NCBI GenBank assembly: GCA_051313645.2
Contig: JBNRSN020000011.1
Coordinates: 55,118,001 to 55,182,000, forward strand
Length of the DNA stretch: 64,000 nt
From: Centroscyllium fabricii
Lineage: Eukaryota
Direction: 5' to 3'
Shown here: one piece after another, positions 4,568 to 62,117 of the stretch
Layout of the letters: the number at the start of each line of letters is the position of its first letter
Position numbering within the stretch: the stretch's first letter is position 1
The notes under the pieces: model-generated
What the model saw: only the letters and a program-made list of their open reading frames with translations
What the model was told of the DNA's origin: nothing
The model's database searches: none
Program-made: the position numbers and the translations under genes

Positions 4568-4620
4568 CGGTGAATGTAACAGATCCTACACAATCAACAA
4601 ATGCTGATAGCACATCATCT
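4568..4620 (+). CDS. CRB3: Internal coding exon of a CRB3-like short ectodomain (xVNVTDPTQSTNADSTSS)
   Basis: Acceptor TTTACAG, donor GTAAGT, 53 nt (phase 1 to phase 0). Ser/Thr-rich with an N-glycosylation sequon (NVT). Splices in frame to 5931, like the short extracellular exon of CRB3. Confidence 0.7.
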
Positions 4621-5589
4621 GTAAGTTGATAGATTTAACTTGACCTAATGTTAATATAGTCTATGGTTTCAGTCTAACTCAGCTTTCAAGGTACAATTCA
4701 CAAAAGGATTTAGTAAAAACTGCTTCTGTAACACCGTACAGTTTCATCTTTGAAATCTCAATTGATCTTCCAATTATCACTAATAGGATACTGTTAGATT
4801 AATACCATGATCAATGCTGCAGCTATTAAGAATCCTTTTCAATTAAAATGAAGACAAATTAGTGCAATTATATGCATTATCCTGGTAATGCATCCATGTA
4901 GAAGTACCACTTGAGAGAACCCAACTGCAGTTTTGAAACCTTTCGTGCTTTTGTTGTGGAAATATTTCTGATATAGAAGGGCATGGTTTTCATAACAAGC
5001 ATTGAATTAGATACAAAAATTAATAATTCATTATGCATGAAATATTACATTAGGCTTTAATCTAGAACAAGTCCATTGTGTGATCAGTGTTACATAACTG
5101 TGGAAGCCTGGGTCAGGTGCATACAGATAAGGCAGTGGACTTGTAGTAGTCCAGCAGATCTAGTGATAAAACTGGACTCCATTGATGCTGACCTGGGCTC
5201 AAATTCTAACCTCAGTTGGCCTTGCATCTCAGCTAACCCCCAAATAAAGAGTTTCAGCAATTCTGAACCAGACCACCTTGTGGTTAGTGGAATGGCCCCA
5301 ATCCAGGGGAAGGGTCATATTGCAGCCTGGATAGCGGGCCCGTCAGCTGGTATGCAGTAGATGTTGTGCTGAAAGTGGACATGGGGCGAGTCCACATTAG
5401 ACCACCATCTCGCCACTCTCTCACGTAAGAAAACAACAGGAAGGCAGTTGAAATGAGGATGTAAAAGTGAATTTTTATTTTAAACAACAGGGAAGTTGTA
5501 TGTATTTATAAAAGATGCAAGTTTTCAGAAGTATACTTGTAGTTGGGGGCAGTGGAAACACATGACCTGGTGGCATTGTAGTCATTGAA

Positions 5590-5810
5590 TTATCCAGCTC
5601 AGAAGACGGCTATTCGGCCCAGCATGCCTGTGCCGGCTCTTTGAAAGAGCTCTCCAATTAATTTCACTCCCCTGCTCTTTCCCCATAGCCATGCAAATGT
5701 TTCCTTTTCAAGTATTTATCAAATTCCCTTTTGAAAGGTACTACTGAATCTGCTTCCACCACCCTTTCAGGCAATACATTCCAGATCATCATAATTTTCT
5801 GCGTAAAAAA
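5590..5810 (-). mobile_element. CR1 LINE 3' fragment
   Basis: ORF 5664-5861(-) contains WNVLPERVVEADSVVPFKREFDKYL...GYGERAGE, a CR1 ORF2 C-terminus. Confidence 0.75.
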
Positions 5811-5930
5811 TAAACAAATTGAAAAAAAATGTATTAAGTTGGACTTTTGACTCATAGGCACTGGCTAGATTAAAGTATGTCCAATTTGTGTGAGGCTTTC
5901 TAATAATAAAAATGCGAATTATTTTCACAG

Positions 5931-6152
5931 ACAAATCCGCCACCAAACAAAGTAAACATAGCAGCCATTGTGGCTCCCTGTGTGATTGGTGGGGTGATAG
6001 TTCTAGCTATCATTCTGACTTTTCTAATTCTAAAATTGCGTGAGAAACGTCAGACTGAAGGGAACTACAGCCCAAGCAACCAGGAGCAGACCGGATCTCG
6101 GATGGAAATGAACAATACCCTTAAACTACCGCCAGAAGAACGCCTTATCTGA
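5931..6152 (+). CDS. CRB3: CRB3-like terminal coding segment: TM helix, FERM-binding motif, PDZ-binding ERLI
   Basis: Acceptor TTTTCACAG|ACA, phase 0. Encodes [83 protein letters not shown] and [10 protein letters not shown] match remembered CRB3. Confidence 0.88.
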
Positions 6153-6395
6153 TATGTTCAGGCTCTGGGACGCACAAGACTTGGGGTGTTATGGTGGAAG
6201 GAGTAGGAGAAGTCAACAGATCCCAGGTATTCCCCGTGTTACTCAACAAGTTAGGAGGAAGAGAAACGTCACAAAGCTGTGCAACTCCAAGTGTGTGTGT
6301 GTGCACGTGTGTTTTCTTTAAACCACGGCAGCTTCAAAGCTAACCCTGCGTGGGTTATCCTTAAACTGTTTAACCGTTTTGACTCTTGTCGGCAG

Positions 6396-6611
6396 GATGT
6401 GGAAGCCTGGACCTCAGAGATTCTGCTGTATATTGGGTTGGTCACCGTGGCATTGCTGCTCATTTTCTTTCTAGTCCTCACTGCCTCCGTTGTGACCCTG
6501 AATAAAAGAGCAACACACGGGGCGTACAGCCCAAGCCGGCAGGAGAAGGAGGGATCGCGGGTGGAGATGTGGAACATGGTGCACCCACCGCAGGTGGAGA
6601 GACTTATCTGA
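6396..6611 (+). CDS. CRB1: CRB1-like terminal coding exon: TM helix, FERM-binding motif, ERLI
   Basis: Acceptor CTCTTGTCGGCAG|GAT, phase 0. Encodes [71 protein letters not shown], very close to remembered human CRB1 (VTVALLL...[31 protein letters not shown]...ERLI). CRB1 lies tail-to-tail with DENND1B in other vertebrates. Confidence 0.92.
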
Positions 6612-8959
6612 ATGAACCCTGAAGCTTGGCAAATCGTTTCTACGGTATGGTGGTATATCATTGCTGTATGTACAGGCCGAGGATGCCATCCAATTCAGCG
6701 TGCCACAAGGAATGCTTTAGCTAGGATTGAAAGTTTTTAAAAGTGCAGTTTAAATCAATTGATTTGCCAAGTTGTTGCCTGAACAGTCCGAAATACCATT
6801 AAAAAATGGCTCCATTTTAATTCTCCCTTTCCGCAAAACTGTCAACAGAAAATGGTTTACAATGCAAGTATGTAATTCACGTTCTGAATATAGAACACGC
6901 ACAAATACAGGAAGAAGATAAAGCATTCAAATACAGGTATACAGAGATGGATGGCCCTAGTTTGGAGGTTTCAGAAAAGGTCAAATGCCCATGTAACAAC
7001 TCCTCCTCTTCATTTAGGGAGCACTTTTAAATTAAAACAAGATTGTAGGCAATGGAGCTTAGAACTCCTCCCTGTGAAATATGGCAATAGAACCAATTGT
7101 TTATAAACATAGGAATAGTGCTAATAACTCTTATCCTTCCTTCTGTGATAGTGGCCTGGAGTTTGCGCTATGTTGCGATTTTTTTTTCAGTGCAAAAGAT
7201 CGCGGAATTTCAAGCGCAACTTATGTCCAGCGCAAATCAAGTTGCCGTGATCTTTTGCACTAGTTTAAAAAAACATCACGCTAGAAGCTGACAGATTTTA
7301 AGTTTGGCAATAGGCAAATGAGTTTGAGCAGAAACTTGGAGGGTGGGGGTGGGGGGGTGGGGGGCTGGGGGGAGAAACACGTCTCAAAACTAGCACAATT
7401 TTGGGCACAATTTGCACCCGGATTGCTGATTGCGCCCAAAGCAGAAACTCTACCCCAGTGTCTTTACTTCTGCACAATTCTAACCTTCAGTTTTGTAAAC
7501 TGCTGAATCTAAACAAACTACAAGTACCATTTCTTGCTCATTATCACAACAAAGCAATACACCGTAACCAATATATTTCAGCTTGACAAAATGGAGAAAG
7601 TATCAGTCTCTTTATGTATGACTGTCTTTTCTAATGTGACCCAGTTATGTCACAAAGTTTCTAACACGTGGCTAGTGGCAGTTCTGGTCACCACCAGGAC
7701 CTAGAGCGCCCACTTAACCCTTTCCTTCTTTGGGAGATTCTGCTCACCAAAACAAGTCAAACCCTTCCTTTTCTAATATAGACAGAGGTGAAACTCGGAT
7801 CGAGTTTAATCCCGAGCCACAATTTTAACCTAAACCGCCCGGCAGGAGCATTCCATGGAGCATAAATTCGGGTGGGGTGTGAAACAGGCGTCTGACACGA
7901 ACCCGCCCTTTTTCCGCCGGGCATCTTAGGTTAAAACCATGGCTCTAGTCTCTTAAAAGAGATGGGAAAACTTTTTGCTTAAATATTTTTACTAACAATA
8001 TTACAAAGTAACTATGCCCAGAGAAGGTATTTTTTGAATCTGATGAAATAAACTGTTCTAGTTACACAAACTATTTCACCAGTTTCCAACTAATTCTTTA
8101 AAAAAAATCAAAGCTCGGTTAATATATAGGACTAAAGCCTTTGTGAAGTGAAAGGTTTCTACCTGGAATGTTAATCCAGATTTTCTCTTTTCAGATGCTG
8201 TTTATTTCCAGCATTTTCTGTTCTTATTTCAGATTCCTAGTGTTTACCGTTGGTCATTCTTTTTAACTCTGAATTTTTACTGACACCAATTTTAACCTAT
8301 ATTGGGACAGATCTGAAGAAAAGTACAACTGATGATGGGGCAAAAGGGAAATTGGCGTCTAATGAATGGAATGAGGATAATTTTTGCCAGATTATGCATT
8401 TTAAACATGTATTTTCAAAATATCCTCTCACCACTTTACCTCTTTCTGTACTGAATATACATTTCAAATTAAATATATGTTCATAACACAAACAAAATAA
8501 ATATTTTCAGTAATCGACTAATGTTAACATTATACAGCATAATTGGGAAAATCAGCTAAAGAATGTTTATCAATTGCTAATGATTTTTAAAAATATTATT
8601 TTCTACTCTTATGCTGAAATGTTATTGGTGTTCTCAAAGGGTTAAAGGTCAACTGCCCACACTCAGATTTTTTCTGCAGCAGCAGCTATTGGCGATAGTA
8701 AATGCTAAGAACAAATGAACATGGAGCGTAGGATCAATGTATTAATTAGAGTGTATATATTTAGAGTGTATTATAGAGTCATTTATAGTCAGGATTAATT
8801 CCAAAGATGCGTGTCTGTGTAAGTTTGACTGCCATTACCTCAGAGTGAGAAGGCAACAATGCTGATGGTATAACACAGCTATTAAAACAAATAACAAGGC
8901 AAAACTAACTAATGATGTATAGCAGTCAAATATCAGATTTCCAACTTGTGCTAATTACA

Positions 8960-10120
8960 TAGAATTTTACAGCACAAAAACAGGTCATTCAACCCAAAAG
9001 GTCTGTGCCAGAGATTATGCTCCACACGAGCCTCCTCTCACTCTCCCTCATCTCACCCTATCGACATAGCCTTCTATTCCTTTCTCCCTCATGCACTTAT
9101 CTAGCTTTCCCTTAAATGTATCTATGCTATTCATCTCAACCACTCCATGTGGGAGCGAGTTCCACATTCTCACCACTCTCCAGAATTCCCTATTGGATTT
9201 GCTATTCCTATTTTATATTTATGACCCCTAGTTTTGGACAACCCCACAAGTGGAAACATTGGGGGGCAATTTTTCCGGAAGGGTGGGAATTGGTCGGGGC
9301 GGCTTCCTGTCCCGCCCGCCCAACCAGCTGGGAAGGCCATGCAATTTTAGGTTAATGAGGTCGTTAAAACCCCGTCGGCGGCAGCGGCAGGTAATTAGGT
9401 GAATCGGGTCGGGCTGCAGCGGAGCTGCGAGCACTTTGAGTGACAGTTCCAGCACTGGTTGTTGTCCGTTCCCATGGCAACACTCCAGTGTGACATCACG
9501 GTGGAGTGGAGCCAATGGGAAAGGCCAAGTGCTGGTGACTGGCAGGTGGGTGGACGGGCTCCGAATCGCTCACAGCTCGCACCAGCTGAGAGGCCATTGT
9601 GAGAACTGAGATTTCTCAGTTTCTGGTCTCAGCTGATATTGAAGGCAGCATGTCCTTCAGACCTTAAAGGAGAAAGTAATACATTCAGGAACTCACACAC
9701 CAGGTTATAGTGCAAAACTTATAAGCAGCGCTGTGCTCCCCCCAGCGGGGTTTAAGGTGGCGGGGTTAAGGTGGAAAACAGCGCAAAATGACTGAGGGCC
9801 CTTAAAATAGCATTAAAAATGGCAATTAAGGGCCCTTAACGAGGTGACAACCCATCCCCGCCGGTTGGCGGTGGGAAGGTTTCGGGGCGGGGAATCTGGG
9901 GGCGGGAAAATGAGAAAGCGGTGGGGCCCGCCGGTTCCGCTATTTTGCTGGCCCGGCTGCCGAAAACCCTGCCTCACGGGGACATGAAAATCCCCCCCAT
10001 TGTCTCTACGTCGACCCTATTAAACTCCTTCATAATTTTGAAGACCCCCATTAGGTCACCTCTCAGTCTTCTCTTTTCCAGAGAAAAGAGCCCCAGCCTG
10101 TTCAGTCTTTCCTGATGGTG
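8960..10120 (-). mobile_element. CR1 LINE 3' fragment split by a MITE
   Basis: ORF 9974-10177(-) has ERLNRLGLFSLEKRRLRGDL..VFKIMKEFNRVDVETM. The frame continues FPLVG across the MITE at 9261-9998. The CR1 3' tail lies at about 8960-9060. Confidence 0.75.
9261..9998. mobile_element. Harbinger-like MITE with 3-bp ATT TSD
   Basis: Termini GGGGGGCAATTTT / AAAATCCCCCCC, each flanked by ATT. Removing the element restores the CR1 frame (ETMFPLVG). Confidence 0.75.
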
Positions 10121-14908: not shown

Positions 14909-16795
14909 TGAGGAGCCTCAAATCAGAACCGACAGCTAGTTCTAACGAAAGACTTTTATTTACAAAGAACTGAACCTAGTCTGCGATGAGTCCGCCCGGA
15001 ATGAGTCAGGTGGGCGGAGCATTCTCCTTTATACTCATACCCAGAGGCGGGGTCAGCCGGTCCAGGTCCTTACAGAAAGGTACAGATTTATTAACACAAA
15101 CTATATACAATAATCCAGAAAGGTACAGATATATTAACACAAACTATATACAATAATAGCACAGTGTGAACCACACCAAATGGTTTATCACATTCACCCC
15201 TTCCTTAAAAAAAGTCCCGCGGGGCGAATATCAGCACTGTGTTATCAGTCTTTGAGGAGGTCGAACAGTCCGATTAGACCTGCGAGGCAGTGGCGGTTCT
15301 CGCGAATAGGCGATAGTCACAATCGGAAAAGGCGCTGACGGGGCTCCCGACGTGAACAGGGACTCCACCGGTGGAAGAGGTACCTCAGGCGCAGGAAGAT
15401 CTGGTGGAGGTGTAGCAGCCGCCGGAAGAGTAGGCTGAGCAACGTGATGAGCTCCGTCGTGCATTGTGGGTGATGAGGGCCCAGATGTAGTGTGCACAGG
15501 TGAATGAAAAGACGGCCCCTGTTGTGAAAATGTGACCTGGGAGGGCAAGGGCTCTGCCAACGACTCTAAGTGAACGTCTCCAGCGGGCGCAAGGTCTCTA
15601 ATCGAGACGGTATCCTCACGCCCGTCTGGGTACTCCACGTAAGCATACTGAGGGTTGGCATGCAGCAGGTGCACACGTTCAACAAGAGGGTCTGTCTTGT
15701 GTCCACGGACGTGCCTAAGCAGAACCGGCCCTGGGTTGGTAAGCCACGTCGGCAGAGACGTCCCCGAAGTCGATTTCCTGGGGAAAGAGAAAAGTTTCTC
15801 GTGAGGCTGTCCAGATGGCGCCGTGGCTGCCACGGTCGCCGTCGAGGGCGTCGAACGCGAGTCCCAAGGCCCAGGGGAAACCGTGTGGGAGCCGTGCCCA
15901 GTGTACGAATCCAGGCTTCGGAGGGCCCCATCCACCGCATTGGAAAGCTTCACCGCCTGATTCAGGGACAAATTATCCTGCTCGAGCAGGCGGGTGTGAG
16001 CTGGGGCCGATCTGATTCCTGCCACGTAGGCATCGCGGACGAGGAGGTCCATGTGCTCCTGGGCGTTAACAGGGGCACATCCGCAGCGCAGAGCGAGAGC
16101 TTGAAGAGCCTCCAGGTACTCCTCATTCGACTCACCATGCTGTTGCCTCCGCGTGGCGAGTAGATGGCGAGCGTAGACGGCGTTGACTGGTTGGAGGTAT
16201 CGAGCCCTCAGCAGCTCCAACGCTGCATCGTAGTCAGTGGCATTCTTAATGATAGAATATACCCTGCCACTCACGCAAGAGACCAGGACTCGTCTCCTGT
16301 GCGCATCGCTGACTCCGGTCACTACCAGGAACGATTCGAAACAGCTCAGCCAGTGCTCAAAATCGTTCGACGCGTTCGGTGCCTGGGGGTTGAGGTCGAG
16401 AATTTTTGGTTTAAGGATAGTTTTCCAGTTTTCTGATGCTGCTGGCTGGTGGCTCTGTTGTTGGTCATCATCCTGCAGGCTCATTGTAAAAATTATTTGT
16501 AAATAAAATTGAGGAGCCTCAAATCAGAACCGACAGCTAGTTCTAACGAAAGGCTTTTATTTACAAAGAACTGAACCAAGTCTGCGATGAGTCCGCCCGG
16601 AATGAGAGTCAGGTGGGCGGAGCATTCTCCTTTATACTCATACCCAGAGGTGGGGTCAGCCGGTCCAGGTCCTTACAGAAAGGTACAGATTTATTAACAC
16701 AAACTATATACAATAATCCAGAAAGGTACAGATATATTAATACAAACTATATACAATAATAGCACAGTGTGAACCACACCAAATGGTTCATCACA
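14909..16795 (-). mobile_element. Internally deleted (non-autonomous) Ty3/Gypsy LTR retrotransposon
   Basis: LTRs 14909-15192 and 16510-16795 (TG...CA; about 5 substitutions plus a 2-bp indel by eye). 5-bp TSD AGGCA at 14904-14908 and 16796-16800. PPT AAGGAAGGGGTGAA on the - strand at about 15193-15206. TATAAA and AATAAA in each LTR on the - strand. Confidence 0.93.
15231..16484 (-). CDS. 417-aa ORF: Gypsy Gag fused in frame to an integrase C-terminal tail
   Basis: N-terminal part is Gag-like (FEHWLSCFESF, YARHLLATRRQQHGESNEEYL, LVRDAYVAGI). C-terminal part resembles an integrase tail (WLTNPGPVLLR..HKTDPLVERVHLLHANPQYAYVEYPDGREDTVSIRDLAP ... PRRSNRTVRPPQRL). No protease, RT, RNase H or DDE core seen. 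Confidence 0.8.
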   Translation of the reverse strand: MSLQDDDQQQSHQPAASENWKTILKPKILDLNPQAPNASNDFEHWLSCFESFLVVTGVSDAHRRRVLVSCVSGRVYSIIKNATDYDAALELLRARYLQPVNAVYARHLLATRRQQHGESNEEYLEALQALALRCGCAPVNAQEHMDLLVRDAYVAGIRSAPAHTRLLEQDNLSLNQAVKLSNAVDGALRSLDSYTGHGSHTVSPGPWDSRSTPSTATVAATAPSGQPHEKLFSFPRKSTSGTSLPTWLTNPGPVLLRHVRGHKTDPLVERVHLLHANPQYAYVEYPDGREDTVSIRDLAPAGDVHLESLAEPLPSQVTFSQQGPSFHSPVHTTSGPSSPTMHDGAHHVAQPTLPAAATPPPDLPAPEVPLPPVESLFTSGAPSAPFPIVTIAYSREPPLPRRSNRTVRPPQRLITQC

Positions 16796-23619: not shown

Positions 23620-24168
23620 CTAAGTGTTGGCAGTGGAAGCACCAACACTGGAAATAGTGTGACCGGTTTCAATTCTGGAGCATAAACAGTCGATCTCTTG
23701 GAGTAGGTCTATTTCACCTGTGGGTTCTATCAATTCAGCCTCAACAGCTTCTTTCTCCCAAGGGATTAAAACCGATGGGTATTTTGATGCATTTTGACAC
23801 TGCTCATCGTAGGTACCGTCTCCACTGGTTAGTGTTCGCGTTGGCTCCTTTAGTTTGGCTGAAATTGTTTTCTTCTGCTTCGATTCTTCACTGGAGGCAA
23901 GGGTTGCCACTGAAGCTTTAAAAGATGAGTCACTATTGAGTTTAGGAAAATTTGTCAACTCTTCAACAAACACACAGGAGTTTTCAGAAGATGACATTTC
24001 AAAGGTAACCGGACATTCAGAAAAATAATAAAATGATTTCCTTGGAGATGGGGGAAGGGGCTTTCTGTGGACAACAGTATCATCTTGTCCCAGGTGCCAA
24101 CTCAGATGATCACCATACCCTACACCGAGTTCAGCCAGGTTTCCCTCACTAGGAGTATTGGACTTGTT
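23620..24168 (-). CDS. DENND1B: DENND1B last coding exon
   Basis: Acceptor TTTTGTTAG|AAC. Encodes NKSNTPSEGNLAELGVGYGDHLSWHLGQDDTVVHRKPLPPSPRK...PSVLIPWEKE...EIDLLQEIDCLC...*, matching the remembered DENND1B C-terminus (NKSNAPSENNLA..WNLGQDD..LPPSPRK..FVPWEKE..IGLLHEVVSLC). Confidence 0.9.
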   Translation of the reverse strand, partial: NKSNTPSEGNLAELGVGYGDHLSWHLGQDDTVVHRKPLPPSPRKSFYYFSECPVTFEMSSSENSCVFVEELTNFPKLNSDSSFKASVATLASSEESKQKKTISAKLKEPTRTLTSGDGTYDEQCQNASKYPSVLIPWEKEAVEAELIEPTGEIDLLQEIDCLCSRIETGHTISSVGASTANT

Positions 24169-42590: not shown

Positions 42591-44487
42591 CATAGAAACA
42601 TAGAAAATAGGTGCAGGAGTAGACCATTCGGTCCCTCGAGCCTACACCGCTTCTCTTTATGTTCGCTTCTTGGCATTTCAGGGCTTTGTAGTCTATGGCA
42701 CTGCTCGAATGCCCTGGGCTCCATTCAAACCAACCTTGCATATAATTTAATTGAATATAGTGCTTCTAAAAATAAGCATGGATTTAACAATTACCTAAGA
42801 GCTGTGTATTTTCTAACTGCTCCATCACACACCAAAAATAAATATATATTTTAAAATTCTTAACCTGGATCAACCTTCTGCACGTGAGCAAACTTTTACT
42901 TCTGGTTCTTTATTTATTTTATTTTCTAAATGCAATGTATCTGGGTAATAACACCAAAAAATATTATTTTGAAATCCTTTTTGCTCCAGCCCAAACAATA
43001 AATTCTTGCACAATTAAAGGCCACTCATTTGCAAAATAACTAAGAAAACAAACAGGACCATTAATGAGTACTTACTTCAAAACAGGTACTCATTCCTGGT
43101 TGTTTATATCAAATTTATTTTTAAGCATCCAATGCCACAACAGGATTCCAGGCAATTCCCTGATAACCAGAAGAGAGCACCTGTTAAAGTGTGTGCTGCA
43201 CGATACTGCATGCCCGGCAGTACACACATCTTTCCTGGGAGACAGAAGCACTATGGGCTGGTTCATTAATTACAAAGGTGAGAATTCAACAGCCAAAAGA
43301 ATATGTATTCAGTCAGTTTGTTGAAATGTACAAAAAAAACTTCCATTCTCCTTTATTCACCATAAACCTTAACAGGGCTTGAGAATTAAGATGTGAGCAC
43401 TTTCTGTTCTCCCATGCCTTTCTATTGTAGTTTATTTAGCCCAAGGCTAGCCATCTGTTATCAAGAGCAATGTTCTATAGTTAATAAAACAAACAGCAAA
43501 ACAGCTAACCCAAGCAATTATAGGCCGCAGCACACAAACACAAAAGCACAAAAAAAAACAAGAATCTTTTTCCTAAGTGGTCAACCACGCCCCCACACTG
43601 CTGACTGTGCTCAAGAAAGAGCAAGGAAGCCATTATTTTTTGGCTTTTAGCAACTAATAAAGAGCACATATTTTCATGCAGATTGGGATCACACCTTTAC
43701 TTACAAAAAAAATCAGGCAACATTTTAATTTAAATTTCTAATAAACTCACTTCCTGTTACGTAATCAATGTGCTTGCGACAAAGTAACATTCATCTCTCT
43801 GGAATTCACTTGTTGCATTTTAGTAAATTGCAGAAACATAGAAACATAGAAGATAGTAGCAGGAGTAGGCCATTCGGCCCTTCGAACCTGCTCCGCCATT
43901 CAACGAGATCATGGCTGATCATCCAAACCCAGCATCCCGCCCCTGCCCTCTCCCCATATCCCTCGATCCCTATCGAGCCTACACCAACACATATCCCACC
44001 CTATCCCCGTAACCCCACATATTTAATCCCCCTAACACTAAAGGCCCTGTCACACCTTGACGTTTTAGCCAGCCTATGCAAATGAGGCTAAAACGCTGAA
44101 CTTTTGACACTTTGTTCAGGTTTTGTGGTTTAGAAGCGTATTCATAGCGTATTTGACGTATAAATAACGTACACGTAGCGTATACGTAGCGTACATTGAC
44201 GTTTCCGAGCTGTTTTCTGTGAAATATTAACAACGTATGACCAGCGTATTGAACGTATACAGAACGTATACGTAACGTAGACGCAGCGTTCTGGACGTAT
44301 GCATAACGTATGCACAGCCGGCGCCAGCGTGTCTACCAAGATCAGGTGGGGTAGCCTACTCAAAGGCTGTCATTGGACGATTCAAATCATACCACTACAT
44401 ACCACTAGACTTTAAAGCTCAGCTCCACACAATGCTTCCAGTTCTACCTGAAAATCTGCTGAGAGAAGTCTGCTGCTGCTTTTGACA

Positions 44488-46044
44488 ATGCCAAGGAGAA
44501 GTTCAAGGAATGCTGCCAGGAAGTTTCGTGGCCGTGGGCGCGTATGCATGGAGGATCCAGCACCCACACCCTTGCCATCACGCTCACCACCCTCTGACGG
44601 AGAGGATGCTGCTTCCAACGTCTCTCGGGCATCGTCTGTGGCTGCGTCCGTGGCCTCCACATCGTCTCAGCCAAAGAAGCGGGCCAAGAAGACACAGTAT
44701 TGTCTTGCTGTTGAGGAGGAGCAGCAGATGTTGGAGTTCCTGACAGAGAACGCCATCCTCTGGGACATTAAAAAAACGGACTATCGGAGGGTGGACAAGA
44801 AGGGAAAGCTCTGGGCGGATCAGGCTAAGGACATGGGGAAGAGTGTGGAGCACCTTCAAGGGTGGTTCAAGTCCCTGCGAGACACCCACACCCGTCTCCA
44901 CAAGAAGAGAAGCGGTGATGGCGCCCAGGAACTGACAGAGAGGGAGCAGTGGGTGAAGGCTAAGTTCGGCTTCCTCACGACTGTGGTCCGCCATCGTCCT
45001 GAGCCCGTCCACAGTGTAAGCTAAGCAGAGCAGGCCTGGTCAGTACTTGGATGGGAGACCATCGGGGAAGACCAGGTGCAATAGCAGGCAGTGACCACGG
45101 AGGAGGCGCTAACGCGCGGTCAAAAAGCAGACCGTTAACCGGTCTGTTAAAAACTCCATCCACCACTTCGAAAGAAGACACGATAAGAAGAAGAAGTATA
45201 AACACATATTAATATCCATAATAATATTTATTTATATTAGTTTTACTGTGCTTTGCCTCGTATTTTTGCTTTGTATTTTACTAATCATTTGTCATAATTG
45301 CAGGTCAAGGAAACCATTGCAGCACACAGCGGGGACCTCGAGGCTGGCGAGGCTGCCTGTGCAGAGATGGTGGTGCTTGATGACAGCACACCCTCCCCTG
45401 TCCCCAGGGGGAAGCGTGCCCAGGAGGATGAGCAGCTGCAGTCCATCAACAGAAGGGTGCAGGAGACTGGGGAGATCCTCAGAAATCTGGCGCAGCCTCA
45501 GCCCATCACACCCACCTTAGCCTTCGCCAACTACGTGCGTGACACCCTGGCCAGCATTCCAGATGAGATATTCCAGGAGTCAAGGTTGCGCATCACCAAC
45601 ATGTTCACTGAGCTGCTGACCCCCATCTCCGTGCAATCTGCTTCAGCACCAGCTACCTACACCCCCACGGTGTCGAGGTTCCAGCAAGGTACCCACAGCT
45701 GGAGACACACGGCACCAGCTGCGTCAGTCTCTGGACAGTACATGCAACAGCCGCAGTACCAGCAGGTGATGGGACAGTTTAATATTATGCCTCCTGCTCC
45801 TCAGCATGTGTACCAGTTTCCTCCTCCTCCTCCTCCTCCTCTGATGACGCAGCAGCCAATCATCGCCTCTTCATCTGCTGCTGTAGGGTCGACTGACCAG
45901 CTACTAAGCAAGAGCCAAAGCACCTTGGACAATACTGAGATGTTCAATATCTCAGGATTCAGCTTTTCAAGTGGTCCCAATGCTGCAAGCAGCCCGCGTG
46001 GGGAGCTGAGCACACTTCCACCATCAGAGGAGAGTGCTGAATGA
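44488..46044 (+). CDS. Intact two-exon MADF (Myb/SANT-like) plus BESS-like protein, about 422 aa (exons 44488-45015 and 45304-46044)
   Basis: MADF-like MLEFLTENAILWDIKKTDYRRVDKKGKLW...LQGWFKSLRDTHTR. Phase-0 intron GTAAGC...TTGCAG. BESS-like LAFANYVRDTLASIPDEIFQESRLRITNMF, then a Q/P-rich tail. No stops seen. Confidence 0.82.
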
Positions 46045-50082: not shown

Positions 50083-52551
50083 TAATTTATGTTAGTTATA
50101 GTAATTTAAAAAAATGTGATTTAAATTTTTTTTTAATGTTTAGTGTGTTTTTGGGGCTCTTGTTTTTAATAAGTTTGACAGATCTAGTCTGTCAAACTTA
50201 TGAATGGAGCATCCTTTGCTCCGATTGGCTCCCCGCGGACCACGTGGTCCCGCGCGGAGCTCCCCACTATCTGAGCCCTTCAGTAGCCTCAGCGCGGCAC
50301 GTGGGGCTTGCAGCTCGGCCAGAAATCGGGATGTCAAATCCCAGAAGATGAGAAACTTCTGCGCGCTCCGTAAGTGTGGGTTGGAGGCTTGCACTCGCGG
50401 GAAGCCTCCAACCCGAATTTCTGGCCCATTGTGATTTTTGATTTGCTCCGTTGCTGAACATTTCAACTTTTATTCTTTTTATTCACAGCTGAGTAGTGCT
50501 GTGATTCTTATGAAAATTAGGATATTTGAGATTGGTGTCATTTATACAGATTCACACGTTCAATTTCAGATTTCATTGATTTAAAATAGATTTAATTGCC
50601 ACTGCACAACTAAAATGTACCAGAAAATTGTTCTTTTTTGGGAGCAGTGTTGAATTTTAACAGAGTCCTTTCCATTAATAAATGGCTACTACATGATAGT
50701 TAGGTGTTTGTACATAAATGTTAACCTTAGATAAAGGACTGTTATAGGTTTGGGCTCCATGCAGTACGGAAACAAGTTGTCAAATGCAGAAATTGCATTT
50801 TTATTGGGCTAGCTGTGTTACGGAGAGTAAGCCAAGCTGTTTCTAATGGAAAGGCCTTTTATGCCATGTATGTGCAGAAGATGTTGATTTTCAGTCATGA
50901 GATCATGTCAAGTTGCTTACACTCCTTGTACTTTAAACAACAAAACAATGCAACAGCTTCACGTGGAGTGCTGCACGGTGAAGCAATTAAAAATCCCTTG
51001 AAAAATAAAACTTGTGTTTTTACAAGATTTCATTTCTTGCCAATAAGGGTAAATGAGTGAGCACTGTATCAGTGTCAACAGCTTCACGAGGGGGCCTCTG
51101 CAAGAAAATCAATGGCAACATGCTCAGCTCCCACAGCTTTCAGATATCGATATTTCCAGAGCAAAAAGTCTGAATCATCTATGGAAATGTGTAGAGCATG
51201 GTTCTTTCTGGATGATCACAGTCCAGTGTTCCAAGAGAGTGTGACATTCAATATAGTGTTGTGGAAGCTATGCTGCTGTGAGCAGTGCTGAGCTGCAGGC
51301 CTATTACTGACAGAGCATGGCTGATGGACAAATCCAGGTACCCACTGCTTCTTGAATGTCAATATGAGCTTTAAAATTTCTGTCAGACATCAGAAAGAAA
51401 AAGAAAACCTTCATACCATCATGTGCACCTCAATCAATCATGGAAACTGAGGCAATATCAAGCTCAATATGTTTCTTCGCAAACGTTGGTTCTGCTGCAC
51501 AGATTCATTTTTACAAAATGATTCTGGAAGCTTTTTAGCAGTTGCAACACTCCTACAATGAATACATTTCAACAGTCTCAATATCGCTCCAAGAAGGTAC
51601 TGAGCACAAAACTGGTAATCTCATTCAGAGGGACCACAAGGTCACTCGGAATAGGAAGTGAACATATTCATACAGATGGGACCAGAATAAGGTGTCCAAA
51701 ATGCACCTCCTGGCAACCTGGCTGTCAAAGCCTGGGAATCTGAGTCCAACATGGGATTATATTCCTTATTTGTTGGGTTTGTCGTGTTTTAATTGTGCAT
51801 GGCTGGAGGTGTAGAAAGGAATGTTCTTAGTGCTGCTACATTTATGTTGAACAATTTCCAAATCAGAACACTAAAAACAGTATTAGCAACTTGCGGTATG
51901 GAAATGGTAATATACATTTAATCTTTAGATGGAGCGATCAAGGTTCCATGGAAGTTAAACCATGGAAGTTAAGGCGCATTATCAAGGCAAGTTCCAAGGA
52001 GATTTATAATTGAAATTGGCTATACTGGACTTGGTAGTATTTGATGTTGACAAAATGTTACTTTCCCCATCACGGACGTCCCTCATCCTGTTGGAGGACA
52101 AAAATTCATCAAAAAGATAAAAGAAAATGGTAAAAAAGCAGAATTGACAGTTAAGGGTCAAAACTAGGTTTCACTCGCACTGTGGGTCCCACTGACAAAT
52201 CTATTCATTTAAAACCAAATTATAATAATTCTTAATTTTGGCCCATCCAAACGTTTTAAGAACTTGTAATAAATATTTGTTACTTTTTTGTACAAATAGA
52301 TTTTAACTTTAATGCATCAATAGCTAAATAGCAGCCGCAGGAAAATACCAAGTCTTGCAAACATATCGTTTGCCGGGAGCTCAGAAAAACAAAATAAATA
52401 TACTGGGGTAGGAACAAGCAAGTCACGGTTAAAAGTCATTACCACCTTTTCGTATATTTCACCATGCATTGGGCCTATGGGAAATTTCGAATTTACTCCA
52501 ATTCCCAAATCACATTTTATTCCATCTACCTATTGATGCATCAATCTATTC

Positions 52552-53480
52552 AATTATAAGGTCAGAAGTGGGGATGTTTGCTGATGATTGCACACTGTTC
52601 AGCACCATTCGAGACTCGTCAGATACTGACGTTGTCTGTGTCCATATGCAGCAAGACCTGGACAACATTCAGACTTGGGCTGACAAGTGGCAAGTAACAT
52701 TCGCACCACACAAGTGCCAGGCAATGACCATCTCCAACAAGCGAGACTCTAACCATCTCCCCATGACATTCAATGGCATTATCATCGCTGAATCCCCCAC
52801 TATCAACATCCTGGGGGGTTACCATTGATCGGAAACTGAACTGGACCAGCCATATAAATACTGTGGCTACAAGAGCAGGCCAGAGGCTGGGAATTCTGCG
52901 GCGAGTGTCTCACCTCCTGACTCCCCAAAGCCTTTCCACCATCTACAAGGCACAAGTCAGGAGTATGATGGAATACTCTCCACTTGCCTGGATGAGTGCA
53001 GCTCCAACAACACTCAAGAAGCTCGACACCATTCAGGATAAAGCAGGTCGCTTGATTGGCACTCCATCCACCACCTTCAACATTCACTCCCTCCACCACC
53101 GGCGCACTGTGGCTGCAGTGTGTACCATCTACAAGATGCACTGCAGCAACTCGCCAAAGCTCCTTAAACAGCACCTTCCAAACCCGCGACCTCTACCACT
53201 TAGAAGGACAAGGGCAGCAGATGCATGGGAACAGCACCACCTACAAGTTCCCCTCCAAGCCACACACCATCCTGACTTGGACCTGTATCGCCGCTCCTTC
53301 ACTGTCGCTGGGCCAAAATCCTGGAACTCCCTTCCTAACAACATTGTGGGTGTACCTACACCATACGGACTGCAGCGGTTCAAGAAGGCGGCTCACCACC
53401 ATCTTCTCAAGGGCAATTAGGGATGGGCACTAAATGCAGGCCTAGCCAGCCAGCGACGCCCACATCCCATCAATGAATTA
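52552..53480 (+). mobile_element. 5'-truncated L2/CR1-group LINE (RT C-terminal half, one frameshift)
   Basis: MFADDCTLF, LDNIQTWADKWQVTFAPHKC, then GVTIDRKLNWTSHI...YKAQVRSMMEYS...WNSLP...HHHLLKGN*. Confidence 0.9.
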
Positions 53481-58568: not shown

Positions 58569-61500
58569 CTAAAACAAGAAATCACAGCAGCCAGTGCTCC
58601 CACCAGCTCATGCTGCCGTCTATATAGTGTGGAGTATCCCAGCCATCAACCGCTAGTTTGAGGAACCACAAGACCAGAGTTTCCTCTAAAATGAGTCAAT
58701 TTTTAAGGATAATCACCTCTACATTTTGCCAACTAAGGAAACTAGGCCAACACTTATGACTTGTGGAGAATTCTTATTTTTTTTGCATTATTGAGAGATA
58801 AATATTCACACAAAATAAACCAATAGTGCAAAATCAACAGTTAATGAAATTGCAAGTGCTGACAACATTGTAAAGGGCGCATTTTCGATTATAAACAATT
58901 TATGAAATGGCTCTAGAAATCCACCTGTAACTGAAAGATAATCCATTTGATGTAGTGAATAGTGGGAGAGTGGAGGCATTAGTATCAGGTATTCATGCCT
59001 CAGTACTGTCAGCCTCCACAGACCTGGAAAATTATGCAAAATTTGTGGCACCAAACAGGCGGTGGGGAATTTTAAGAATCCATTTTGATGCTAAAAAATA
59101 ATCCAAAAATTTAGAGGATTAAATTTTTTTAGTATTACTGAGCATTGCCATTGCGCAATTAGAGAATATATTCCTTTAATAACTATCAAGAATCATTCAA
59201 ACAGACCTTATGCATGGTCTACGTTTAAAGTGTCACAAAACTCATGGCAACTGTCGCCAAGGATGATACCGGCAGTCCATTAAGAATGTGAGCTGTATGA
59301 ACAAAACCAACAACTTTTTGGCAGATAATTAAAATGTTATGCAAGACTGAATATGTTAAAAGAGATAGCAGGCAGAATTCATTTTAATTTCTGTAGTTTT
59401 GAAAAGCAGTTGTATTCTTTTGTAAAGTAATAATAAAACTTAACAGACAGCCAAATCTTTCTCCAAATCTACAGCCTCAAAGAAAGCTATTAACATTTTC
59501 CCCAGTTACAAAGTGACAGTCCATTTATTTAAAATTCTGCCAATCAGTGAGATCTAAAGTACAATACAACATAATAGCGTACGATGAACCATTTAGGCAT
59601 AAAATGTCACTAATTTTTGTTGCCAAAATAGACCACAAGGTTTTTGGCAAATAATCCATAATTAAAAGCGACTTAAGTTTAATAACTTCTTCAGCTAAAA
59701 ACATAAATTTTCTACATGTCACCACTGCCCAGCATTCGGGCCAACAATCAAAGCATTTTCTAATTGTTACCATGCCATAATTGCAGATTTATTAAAATTA
59801 TTTCTTTTGAAAGTTTTATTTACTTGAAACTGTGTGAAGTTCACAATCCATTTTGAGAACGAAAAAAAAAACCTTACTGGAAAAATGTCTAAACACTAAA
59901 ATATTTAATATGCAAATAAGTTTATTCGAGATTCCAATCAAAATGAAATCTATAGTTTTTTACATCCCTAGGAAGTCATCCGATTTTGAAAAGCGTTTTT
60001 GCAGTAAAATTCTTCGCTCTGCTTTATTAAGGCATTAACCAGTTCAAAATAAAAGGGTTAATGCCTCTATTAGAACAGCAGAGATAGAAACTTCAAACAA
60101 ACACATTGAGTCTCAGAGCTACAAGACTGCTTCGAACGCACTGAATGGAGCATGTTCGCTCACACGGACATCGAGGAATACGCATCCACAGTGCTTTTTT
60201 ACATCAACAGCTGTGTTGAGGTGGTCACTACCCAAAAAACCATCAAGTCATTCCCCAACCAGAAACCCTGGATGAACGGGGAGGGCCGCTCGCTGCTGAA
60301 GGCGCGTGACACAGCTTTCAAATCTGGGGATGTGGCGGCTTACAGCACAGCCAGGACCAACCTAAAGAGGGGTATCAGGTATGCCAAACAAAACCAGACA
60401 CTGAAGATAGAGGAACACTTTCACAACAACTCGGACCCTCGACGTATGTGGCAAGGCATACAGTCCATCACGGACTACAAGTGCAGAAACACCAGCCCCC
60501 CGACCGGCGATGCCTCCCTACCGGAGGAACTCAACAACTTCTACGCTCGCTTCGACAGGGACAACAAGAAGCCAGCCACCAAAGTCCAGTAATCCCCGGA
60601 AGACCAGCCATTAACACTGTCCTGCTCCGACGTTAGAGGTGCTCTACGTAGAGTGAACGCACGGAAGGCCGCGGGTCCTGATGGCATCCCCGGCCGGGCA
60701 CTCAAAGAATGTGCCGACCAACTGGCTGAAGTCTTCATTGACATCTTCAACCTGTCACTGGCGAAGGCAGCTGTCCCTACCTGCTTCAAGACCGCCACCA
60801 TCATCCCTGTGCCCAAGAAAACGGCCATGACGTGCCTGAACGACTACCGCCCTGTTGCACTTACACCCATTATCATGAAGTGTTTCAAGCGGCTGGTCCT
60901 GGCCCACATCAAAGCCAGCATCCCCGCCGCCCTGGACCAATACCAGTTCGCCTACCGTGGGAACAGATCTACAGAGGATGCTATCACTACGGCTCTTCAC
61001 TCTGCACTAAACCACCTGGATAGCAAAGATACACATATCAGAATGCTGTTTATTGACTACAGCTCAGCATTCAACACCATCGTCCCCAGCAAATTGTCTA
61101 CCAAACTCCTCACCCTCGGCCTGAACACCTCCCTCTCCAACTGGACCCTGGACTTCCTAAACAACAGACCACAGTCTGTGAAGTTAGGCAACCTCACCTC
61201 CCCCCCACTTACCCTGAACACGGGGGCCCCACAAGGTTGTGTGCTGAGCCCCCTCCTCTACTCCCTCTTCACTCACAACTGTGCGGCTGTCCATGGCTCC
61301 AACACGATCATCAAGTTCGCGGATGACACCACGGTGGTTGGCCAGATCACCAACAACGACGAGTCAGCCTACAGGGATGAGATCCAGCGCCTTGTGGGTT
61401 GGTGTGCCGACAACAACCTGGCACTGAACACCAAGAAAACCAAGGAGATCATAGTGGACTTCCGGAGGACTGGAAGCAGAAGACACACCCCCATCTTCAT

Positions 61501-62117
61501 CCAAGGGGCTGAGGTGGAAAGGGTGTCCAGCTTCAAGTTCCTTGGGGTCCACATCTCGGAAGATCTCTCCTGGTCACTAAACACCTCCTCTCTGGTTAAG
61601 AAGGCCCAACAGCGCCTGTACTTCCTAAGGAAGCTGAAGAAAGCCAAGCTGTCATCCGGCATCCTCTCCAACTTCTACCGCTGCACAATAGAAAACATAC
61701 TGACAAGCTGCATCACAGTCTGGTATGGAAATTGCACTATCTCGGACCGGAAAACCCTGCAGCGGGTAGTCAAAACTGCCCAATGAATTACCGGTACACA
61801 GCTACCGTCAATGGAACGCACCTACCTCAAACGCTGCTTACGGAGGTCTCTGAACATTATTAAAGACCCCACACACCCCAGCCACAGTCTGTTCGCCCCC
61901 CTGCCCTCCGGGAGACGCTACAGAGCAATTCGCACCCGCACGACTAGATTTCAGAACAGCTTCTTCCTCAGGGCTGTCAGCCTCCTGAACTCTAAAAAGA
62001 AACTCCGGTACCTGCACGCCTGATAATGTACTCTACTGTATGCATTTTGCATGTAATTTATTTATTTGCACTACTCTCGGGAGAGTCGAGTCTTCGTCTC
62101 GTTGTATTGTACTAGTA

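Follow-up and report, generated by a model that had tools for sequence, protein, structure and literature searches.

Two exons lying 243 bp apart in the genome of Centroscyllium fabricii each encode a complete Crumbs tail, and the question raised by this locus is which proteins end in which tail and how one gene came to hold both. A sequence-only reading had seen here a CRB3-type transcript within the last intron of CRB1, up to 2x2 isoforms (a long or a short ectodomain with either tail) and a composite locus in which a CRB3-type gene is nested just ahead of the CRB1 terminal exon. We consider it probable, with good though not full confidence, that the CRB1 locus combines two promoters with two last-exon acceptors to give several Crumbs proteins, and that this layout derives from a single ancestral vertebrate gene. 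The features concerned are collected in Table 1; the window, to which positions without a contig prefix refer, is the whole 64,000-nucleotide stretch analysed, and its proteins find their best matches in sharks.

Table 1. Features of the CRB1 locus and tail exons of CRB2
Feature	Position	Strand	Remarks
Window	C113:55118001-55182000		in 7.2-Gb genome
CRB1 last EGF exon	C113:55041645-55041771		127 nt, phase-0 donor
Nested unit exon 1 (signal peptide)	C113:55086211-55086292		82 nt, phase 1; 31.7 kb upstream of window
Nested unit exon 2	4568..4620	+	53 nt, AG...GTAAGT, phase 1 in, phase 0 out
Tail A (stalk, TM helix, FBM, ERLI, stop)	5931..6152	+	73 aa + TGA
Spacer	6153..6395	+	243 bp; 3' UTR with acceptor A, intron end with acceptor B
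Tail B (TM helix, FBM, ERLI, stop)	6396..6611	+	71 aa + TGA
Likely shared 3' UTR	6612..9116 at least	+	four X2 contigs
Likely last coding exon of convergent DENND1-family neighbour	23620..24168	-	182-aa open frame
CRB2 tail A	C822:416328819		phase 0
CRB2 tail B	C822:416330055		phase 0

Two Crumbs tails and a nested short unit

The two tail exons are intact and each follows its own phase-0 acceptor (...TTTTCACAG for tail A and ...GTCGGCAG for tail B), just as had been described from the letters. Both end in a C-terminal ERLI, with a cytoplasmic part of fewer than 40 aa, and the two are 43% identical to one another. Two copies of the motif RxxxGxYxP...ERL[IV]* are present in the window and none in 100 base shuffles, and a tail profile matches Drosophila Crumbs (4wsi_X, E 6.9e-16). 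An FBM of the form RxxxGxYxPS following the TM helix is a mark of the Crumbs family in the portion of PMC5968619 drawn on here, and is present in both tails. The same portion gives the FBM two aPKC sites (TxGTY), a pair that is incomplete in the window: the first Thr is kept, whilst the second is replaced by Asn in tail A and by Ala in tail B. Since orthologues are variable at this second Thr, its absence is no bar to Crumbs membership. Both CRB2 tails of the same genome (see below) retain it. Judged from the motifs and from known Crumbs biology, both tails would be expected to bind PALS1/PAR6 via ERLI and FERM proteins via the FBM, with putative apical localisation. As they differ in the TM helix and in the middle of the tail, the choice between them likely tunes partners or trafficking. 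Tail A is of the same type as the tails of CRB2 and CRB3, and tail B is the orthologue of the bony-vertebrate CRB1 tail (that of the CRB1-A isoform), its named matches being CRB1 proteins.

The upstream EGF/LamG exons that the sequence-only reading had asked for were found between 198 and 82 kb upstream of the window, in 200 kb of gap-free neighbouring assembly. Within that stretch, which excludes the exons for the first ~390 aa, they match a shark CRB1 at 86-93% (89% for the last EGF exon). With these exons upstream, and with tail B falling in the CRB1 clade (100/98), the host gene is CRB1; the position and phase-0 donor of the last EGF exon make its last intron 82 kb long. Read-through of that exon (C113:55041772-55041882) gives an intact CRB1-B-type TM tail, whose end resembles that of the mouse CRB1-B peptide in the part of PMC7335077 used for comparison.

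Downstream lies a neighbour on the opposite strand, with DENN-domain exons on the - strand at C113:55267334 and 55284978. Its candidate last exon at 23620..24168 we take, from position and likeness, to belong to DENND1; an Atlas search with this exon gave no usable match. On 33 aa, the neighbour scores 62.8 bits against DENND1A and 61.3 bits against 1B. Of the earlier identification as DENND1B, the DENND1 family stands, but 33 aa do not separate 1B from 1A or 1C; DENND1B, the neighbour expected from synteny, is a candidate. The window also holds mobile-element open frames at 15231-16523 (-), 44452-46044 (+), 52433-53433 (+) and 60110-61786 (+), which by eye we take to be one gag-like, one Myb/SANT-type of a likely Harbinger and two reverse-transcriptase-like LINE pieces.

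Between the last EGF exon and the tails lies the short unit. Its second exon (4568-4620) encodes a Ser/Thr/Asn-rich stalk with the N-x-T N-glycosylation sequon expected of it, and comes first of six when the 82-kb intron is scanned for micro-exons. The separate signal-peptide exon, for which the sequence-only reading had also asked, was located with the whale shark 'crb3a' and epaulette shark 'crb3-like' proteins as queries, and ranks second of five in a blind scan. Joined to tail A, the two exons give a protein of 118 aa that is matched exon by exon by whale shark 'crb3a', and 118 aa is also the length of the RefSeq whale shark and epaulette shark proteins. The architecture is of CRB3 type: a signal peptide, a short ectodomain free of EGF and LamG domains, a TM helix and ERLI. 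Its own sequence and the RefSeq models of relatives indicate that the signal-peptide exon starts this protein from inside the CRB1 last intron, and an internal promoter would lie ahead of it. Exon 4568-4620 is ruled out as a cassette of long CRB1, since in phase 0 it meets a stop at codon 2 and the long form thus cannot use it.

Transcripts and the choice of acceptor

Junctions were sought, over a stretch with exon 4568-4620 and both tails, in contigs from four of 17 relatives' runs presumed to be RNA; no run recorded as RNA matched that stretch. The joint 4620>5931 (GT..AG) is present in three of the four runs, drawn from two of three studies; run X2 gives it as 4620>5934, with one codon changed between, and in run X5 no junction was found. 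A contig of X2 runs unbroken from 5934 to 7335 and hence across the 243-bp spacer, which has three consequences: tail B is 3' UTR in that transcript, the spacer is not misassembled and, as the hexamer scan found neither AATAAA nor ATTAAA in the spacer, the tails are best taken to be alternative acceptors of a single last exon. Exon 4568-4620 is thus shown by relatives' contigs to splice to tail A and to leave tail B in the 3' untranslated end. Altogether, four X2 contigs at a depth of 30-36 tile 5934-9116 with short gaps and appear to belong to one transcript. An AATAAA hexamer does occur at 6501-6506, within the coding sequence of tail B, and the X2 contig extends past it. Among the 31 of 35 differences listed for X2, six of the seven coding ones are synonymous (3/3 in tail A, 3/4 in tail B).

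These results bear out much of what the sequence-only reading proposed: transcripts use the 5931 acceptor, a CRB3-type transcript lies within the CRB1 last intron, and misassembly between 6152 and 6396 is ruled out by the contig that spans it. The 2x2 scheme fared less evenly. Short+A has its junction, and long+A and long+B occur as RefSeq models only; short+B was not seen. That fourth isoform is phase-compatible, but its joint (4620>6396) is absent among the 15 of 34 joints listed, and the tail-B protein search covered only proteins of at least 126 aa. To judge from the RefSeq models, the phase-0 donor of the long EGF/LamG form would be joined to A or to B, or be read through into the CRB1-B-type tail.

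Could the two tails nevertheless belong to two separate genes, A to the nested gene only and B to CRB1 only, with long+A models as annotation artefacts and the tails not interchangeable? That 4620>5931 is the only junction seen in reads would fit this, as would the finding of short+A and long+B as distinct RefSeq genes in three of 12 cartilaginous fishes. Against it, however, long+A models with the same junction exist in seven of the 12, as well as in bichir, reedfish and a caecilian, and at CRB2, which yielded no short unit, the long protein normally ends in tail A and alternatively in B. We regard two separate genes as unlikely. Nor does tail A belong to the short gene alone, since it also ends the RefSeq long CRB1 X1 of several sharks.

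Sister loci, trees and other vertebrates

Searches with both tails identified three Crumbs loci in the genome (C113 CRB1, C822 CRB2 and C446 CRB3), and at all three the same DENND1 exon comes next, on the opposite strand. CRB2 has the same A-then-B pair as CRB1, 1014 bp apart after a last intron of 32 kb, and the arrangement is therefore not special to the CRB1 locus. Read past its end, the last EGF exon of CRB2 gives a homologous tail (from C822:416296695) that is decayed and carries an internal stop; given this homologue, the third tail seems older than the CRB1/CRB2 split. Scanning the 32-kb intron for a nested short unit gave 12 signal-peptide-like and three micro-exon candidates, none convincing; one candidate was set aside for its weak donor and its position, by eye, among repeat-like sequence. 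In CRB2 the 5' exons (C822:416160013-416224529) and the 3' exons (416286630-416330276) are on opposite strands, - and + respectively, separated by a scaffold gap of 200 N (C822:416281504-416281703), and this opposition likely reflects a mis-oriented contig in the assembly.

The genome also has its own CRB3, on C446 and beside a third DENND1 gene. It follows the plan of the nested unit: a signal-peptide exon (61 nt), a middle exon (53 nt) and tail A (195 nt) are joined in phases 1 and 0 and encode 102 aa; the first is a scan candidate ranked third of nine, and the middle one equals exon 4568-4620 in length and phases. No EGF/LamG exon was found in 200 kb at this locus and no B tail in the 20 kb downstream, and a B tail beside the true CRB3 is ruled out within that distance. 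A long tandem array (unit ~27 bases) occupies C446:11736500-11764800, within CRB3's DENND1 neighbour.

Tails were compared in a tree of 35 rows and 66 columns, in which the outgroup is not one clade and from which 50 rows, including the long-branch A tails of bichir and caecilian, were omitted. Clade A (98/93) unites the A tails of CRB2 with a group (98/95) of the A tails of CRB1 and all CRB3; clade B (98/94) unites the B tails of CRB1 and CRB2, with the window's tail B in the CRB1 subclade (100/98). A quick 85-row tree agrees (A 95, B 82). The AU test rejects trees that unite the two window tails (p=0.00012) or every CRB1-locus tail (p=0.00005), so that tails group by type and not by locus, and the pair likely predates the CRB1/CRB2 split. 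A recent tandem duplication is thereby ruled out, as the sequence-only reading had anticipated in asking for such a tree. More broadly, for duplication of the tail exon independently at each locus, recent duplication or an assembly error there is only the tandem position of the exons to cite; with the AU values, an A-to-B identity of 43%, a relative's contig over the spacer and both tails annotated in other species all pointing the other way, we give this family of explanations almost no credence.

In the same tree, the CRB3 of C446 groups with the bony-vertebrate CRB3-type rows (82/83), and the closest branch outside this grouping is the nested unit, in a sister position. The nested unit is therefore a sister paralogue of CRB3 and not CRB3 moved to CRB1: the role of orthologue is filled by the separate gene on C446, and the composite locus of the earlier reading needs correction. 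What might still be argued for a CRB3 copy that moved into the CRB1 last intron after the genes had separated is that tail A stands nearer the genome's own CRB3 (64%) than CRB2-A (49%), that the exon sizes fit CRB3 and that no short unit was found at CRB2. Such a move leaves the A-then-B order at CRB2 unexplained, however; against it stand also the presence of tail A at CRB1 in cartilaginous as well as bony fishes and the DENND1 neighbour kept at all three loci. A forced chondrichthyan-only clade of CRB1-A and CRB3 is moreover disfavoured (p=0.049), as is CRB1-A with CRB2-A (p=0.047), both values being borderline and both tests, which concern CRB1-A as sister to all CRB3, having been named after the tree was seen. 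We hold the move to be very improbable, and return to two acceptors inherited from one ancestral gene.

The same choice of tails can be followed in other vertebrates. For cartilaginous fishes, the counts come from automatic RefSeq/Ensembl models of 12 species, among the matches listed (32 of 36 cluster members), and assignment to the same locus, here and in the other species below, rests on isoform names, contig sizes and neighbouring ids. Four of the 12 have both long+A and long+B CRB1 isoforms (Scyliorhinus canicula, Cetorhinus and two Chiloscyllium) and three have long+B together with a short+A model (Rhincodon, Hemiscyllium and Callorhinchus); the remainder show long+A only (3/12), long+B only (1/12) or the read-through tail (1/12). 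Pieces of the layout go under the names whale shark 'crb3a', epaulette shark 'crb3-like' and CRB1 isoforms X1/X2. Among bony vertebrates, CRB1 X1 ends in a diverged A and X2 in B in bichir, reedfish and a caecilian, tail A having diverged in bichir and caecilian (the caecilian version ends EHLI), and among the models seen CRB1 has only B in Xenopus (2/2) and monotremes (4/4). Conger and tarpon predictions have a diverged short+A running into B. In the mudskipper, a 'Crumbs homolog 3b' (UniRef A0A3B3ZAZ1) has an A-type TM helix and FBM followed by a B end of CRB1 type, a hint that a remnant of A survives at teleost crb1 loci and that the name 'crb3b' is misplaced.

CRB2 shows the pair in five of five non-avian clusters (Xenopus laevis, Pyxicephalus, Ambystoma, Pelodiscus and Pogona), where X1 is A and X2 is B; the horn shark has A and B models of CRB2 too. 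In birds, B closes seven of seven RefSeq CRB2 isoforms among those listed, and in a sparrow prediction CRB2 tail A is followed by B. Of the 83 matches listed for the B tail of CRB2, none bears the name of a mammalian or teleost CRB2, which points weakly to loss. No cyclostome or amphioxus sequence was identified among the 10 of 150 unnamed matches that were looked up.

Relation to known Crumbs genes and origin of the layout

Several known systems resemble parts of this locus. Mammalian CRB3A, as the portion of PMC4278252 drawn on here presents it, has a signal peptide, a very short glycosylated ectodomain, a TM helix, an FBM and ERLI; the nested unit differs in sitting inside CRB1, in having a last exon that long CRB1 models also use and in being a paralogue. 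Mammalian CRB1-A and CRB1-B, in the part of PMC7335077 used for comparison, also come from one locus with alternative promoters and alternative TM+tail ends. CRB1-B lacks the FBM and ERLI, however, whereas in the shark the alternative is a second tail with FBM and ERLI complete, and the shark internal start yields a protein without any EGF or LamG domain. The zebrafish crb2b-sf likewise has a second start inside a Crumbs gene and a shorter ectodomain, but lacks only the first 11 EGF repeats, and the part of that account to hand describes no tail choice (PMC11129452).

Orthologues of the nested unit are already in RefSeq as XP_048458202 ('crumbs homolog 3a', whale shark, 118 aa), XP_060686160 ('crumbs homolog 3-like', epaulette shark, 118 aa) and XP_007893872 ('crumbs homolog 3', elephant shark, 121 aa), and the tails of the first two are 92-95% identical to its tail. 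Their names convey CRB3 but neither the nesting, nor the shared exon, nor the separate true CRB3. The literature outside subscription journals yielded no description of twin ERLI tails, of a nested CRB3-type unit or of the origin for CRB3 set out below. The earlier supposition that the arrangement was undescribed thus holds for print but not for automatic annotation, which has the pieces; the supplementary species alignments of PMC7335077 and PMC5968619 may bear on the matter as well.

As to origin, trees and synteny suggest that the TM+tail exon was duplicated in tandem before the CRB1/CRB2 split and that the short unit is older than the CRB1/CRB3 split. The CRB3 copy would then have kept short+A only, whilst sharks would have kept both tails at both long loci. 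In mammals, CRB1 would have kept long+B and CRB2 long+A, and CRB3 would likely be the nested short unit left alone; the mammalian losses are read from absence among the matches listed and from known gene structures. This history is probably tied to the two vertebrate genome duplications. Taken as a whole, and with more reserve than for the CRB1 locus itself, we lean towards an ancestral Crumbs gene that combined a long or a short ectodomain with three tails (CRB1-B-type read-through, A and B), mammalian CRB1, CRB2 and CRB3 that are isoforms frozen after genome duplication, with CRB3 an escaped internal transcript, and frogs, reptiles and birds in which a switch still gives CRB2 a tail of either CRB2 or CRB1 type.

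This offers a concrete and testable account of how CRB3, the chief Crumbs of mammalian epithelia, arose, would account for the resemblance of the CRB2 and CRB3 tails and the difference of the CRB1 tail, and would clearly exemplify the division of alternative isoforms between duplicated genes. Some 'crb3' names in cartilaginous fishes belong to the paralogue nested in CRB1 and not to CRB3. A second CRB2 tail is predicted for Xenopus, axolotl, reptiles and birds, and would be overlooked or confused with the first in work with tail-specific antibodies, knock-downs and rescue constructs. If true, the CRB2 tail switch would be a choice of splice site hitherto unstudied in Xenopus and chick, routine test animals for Crumbs.
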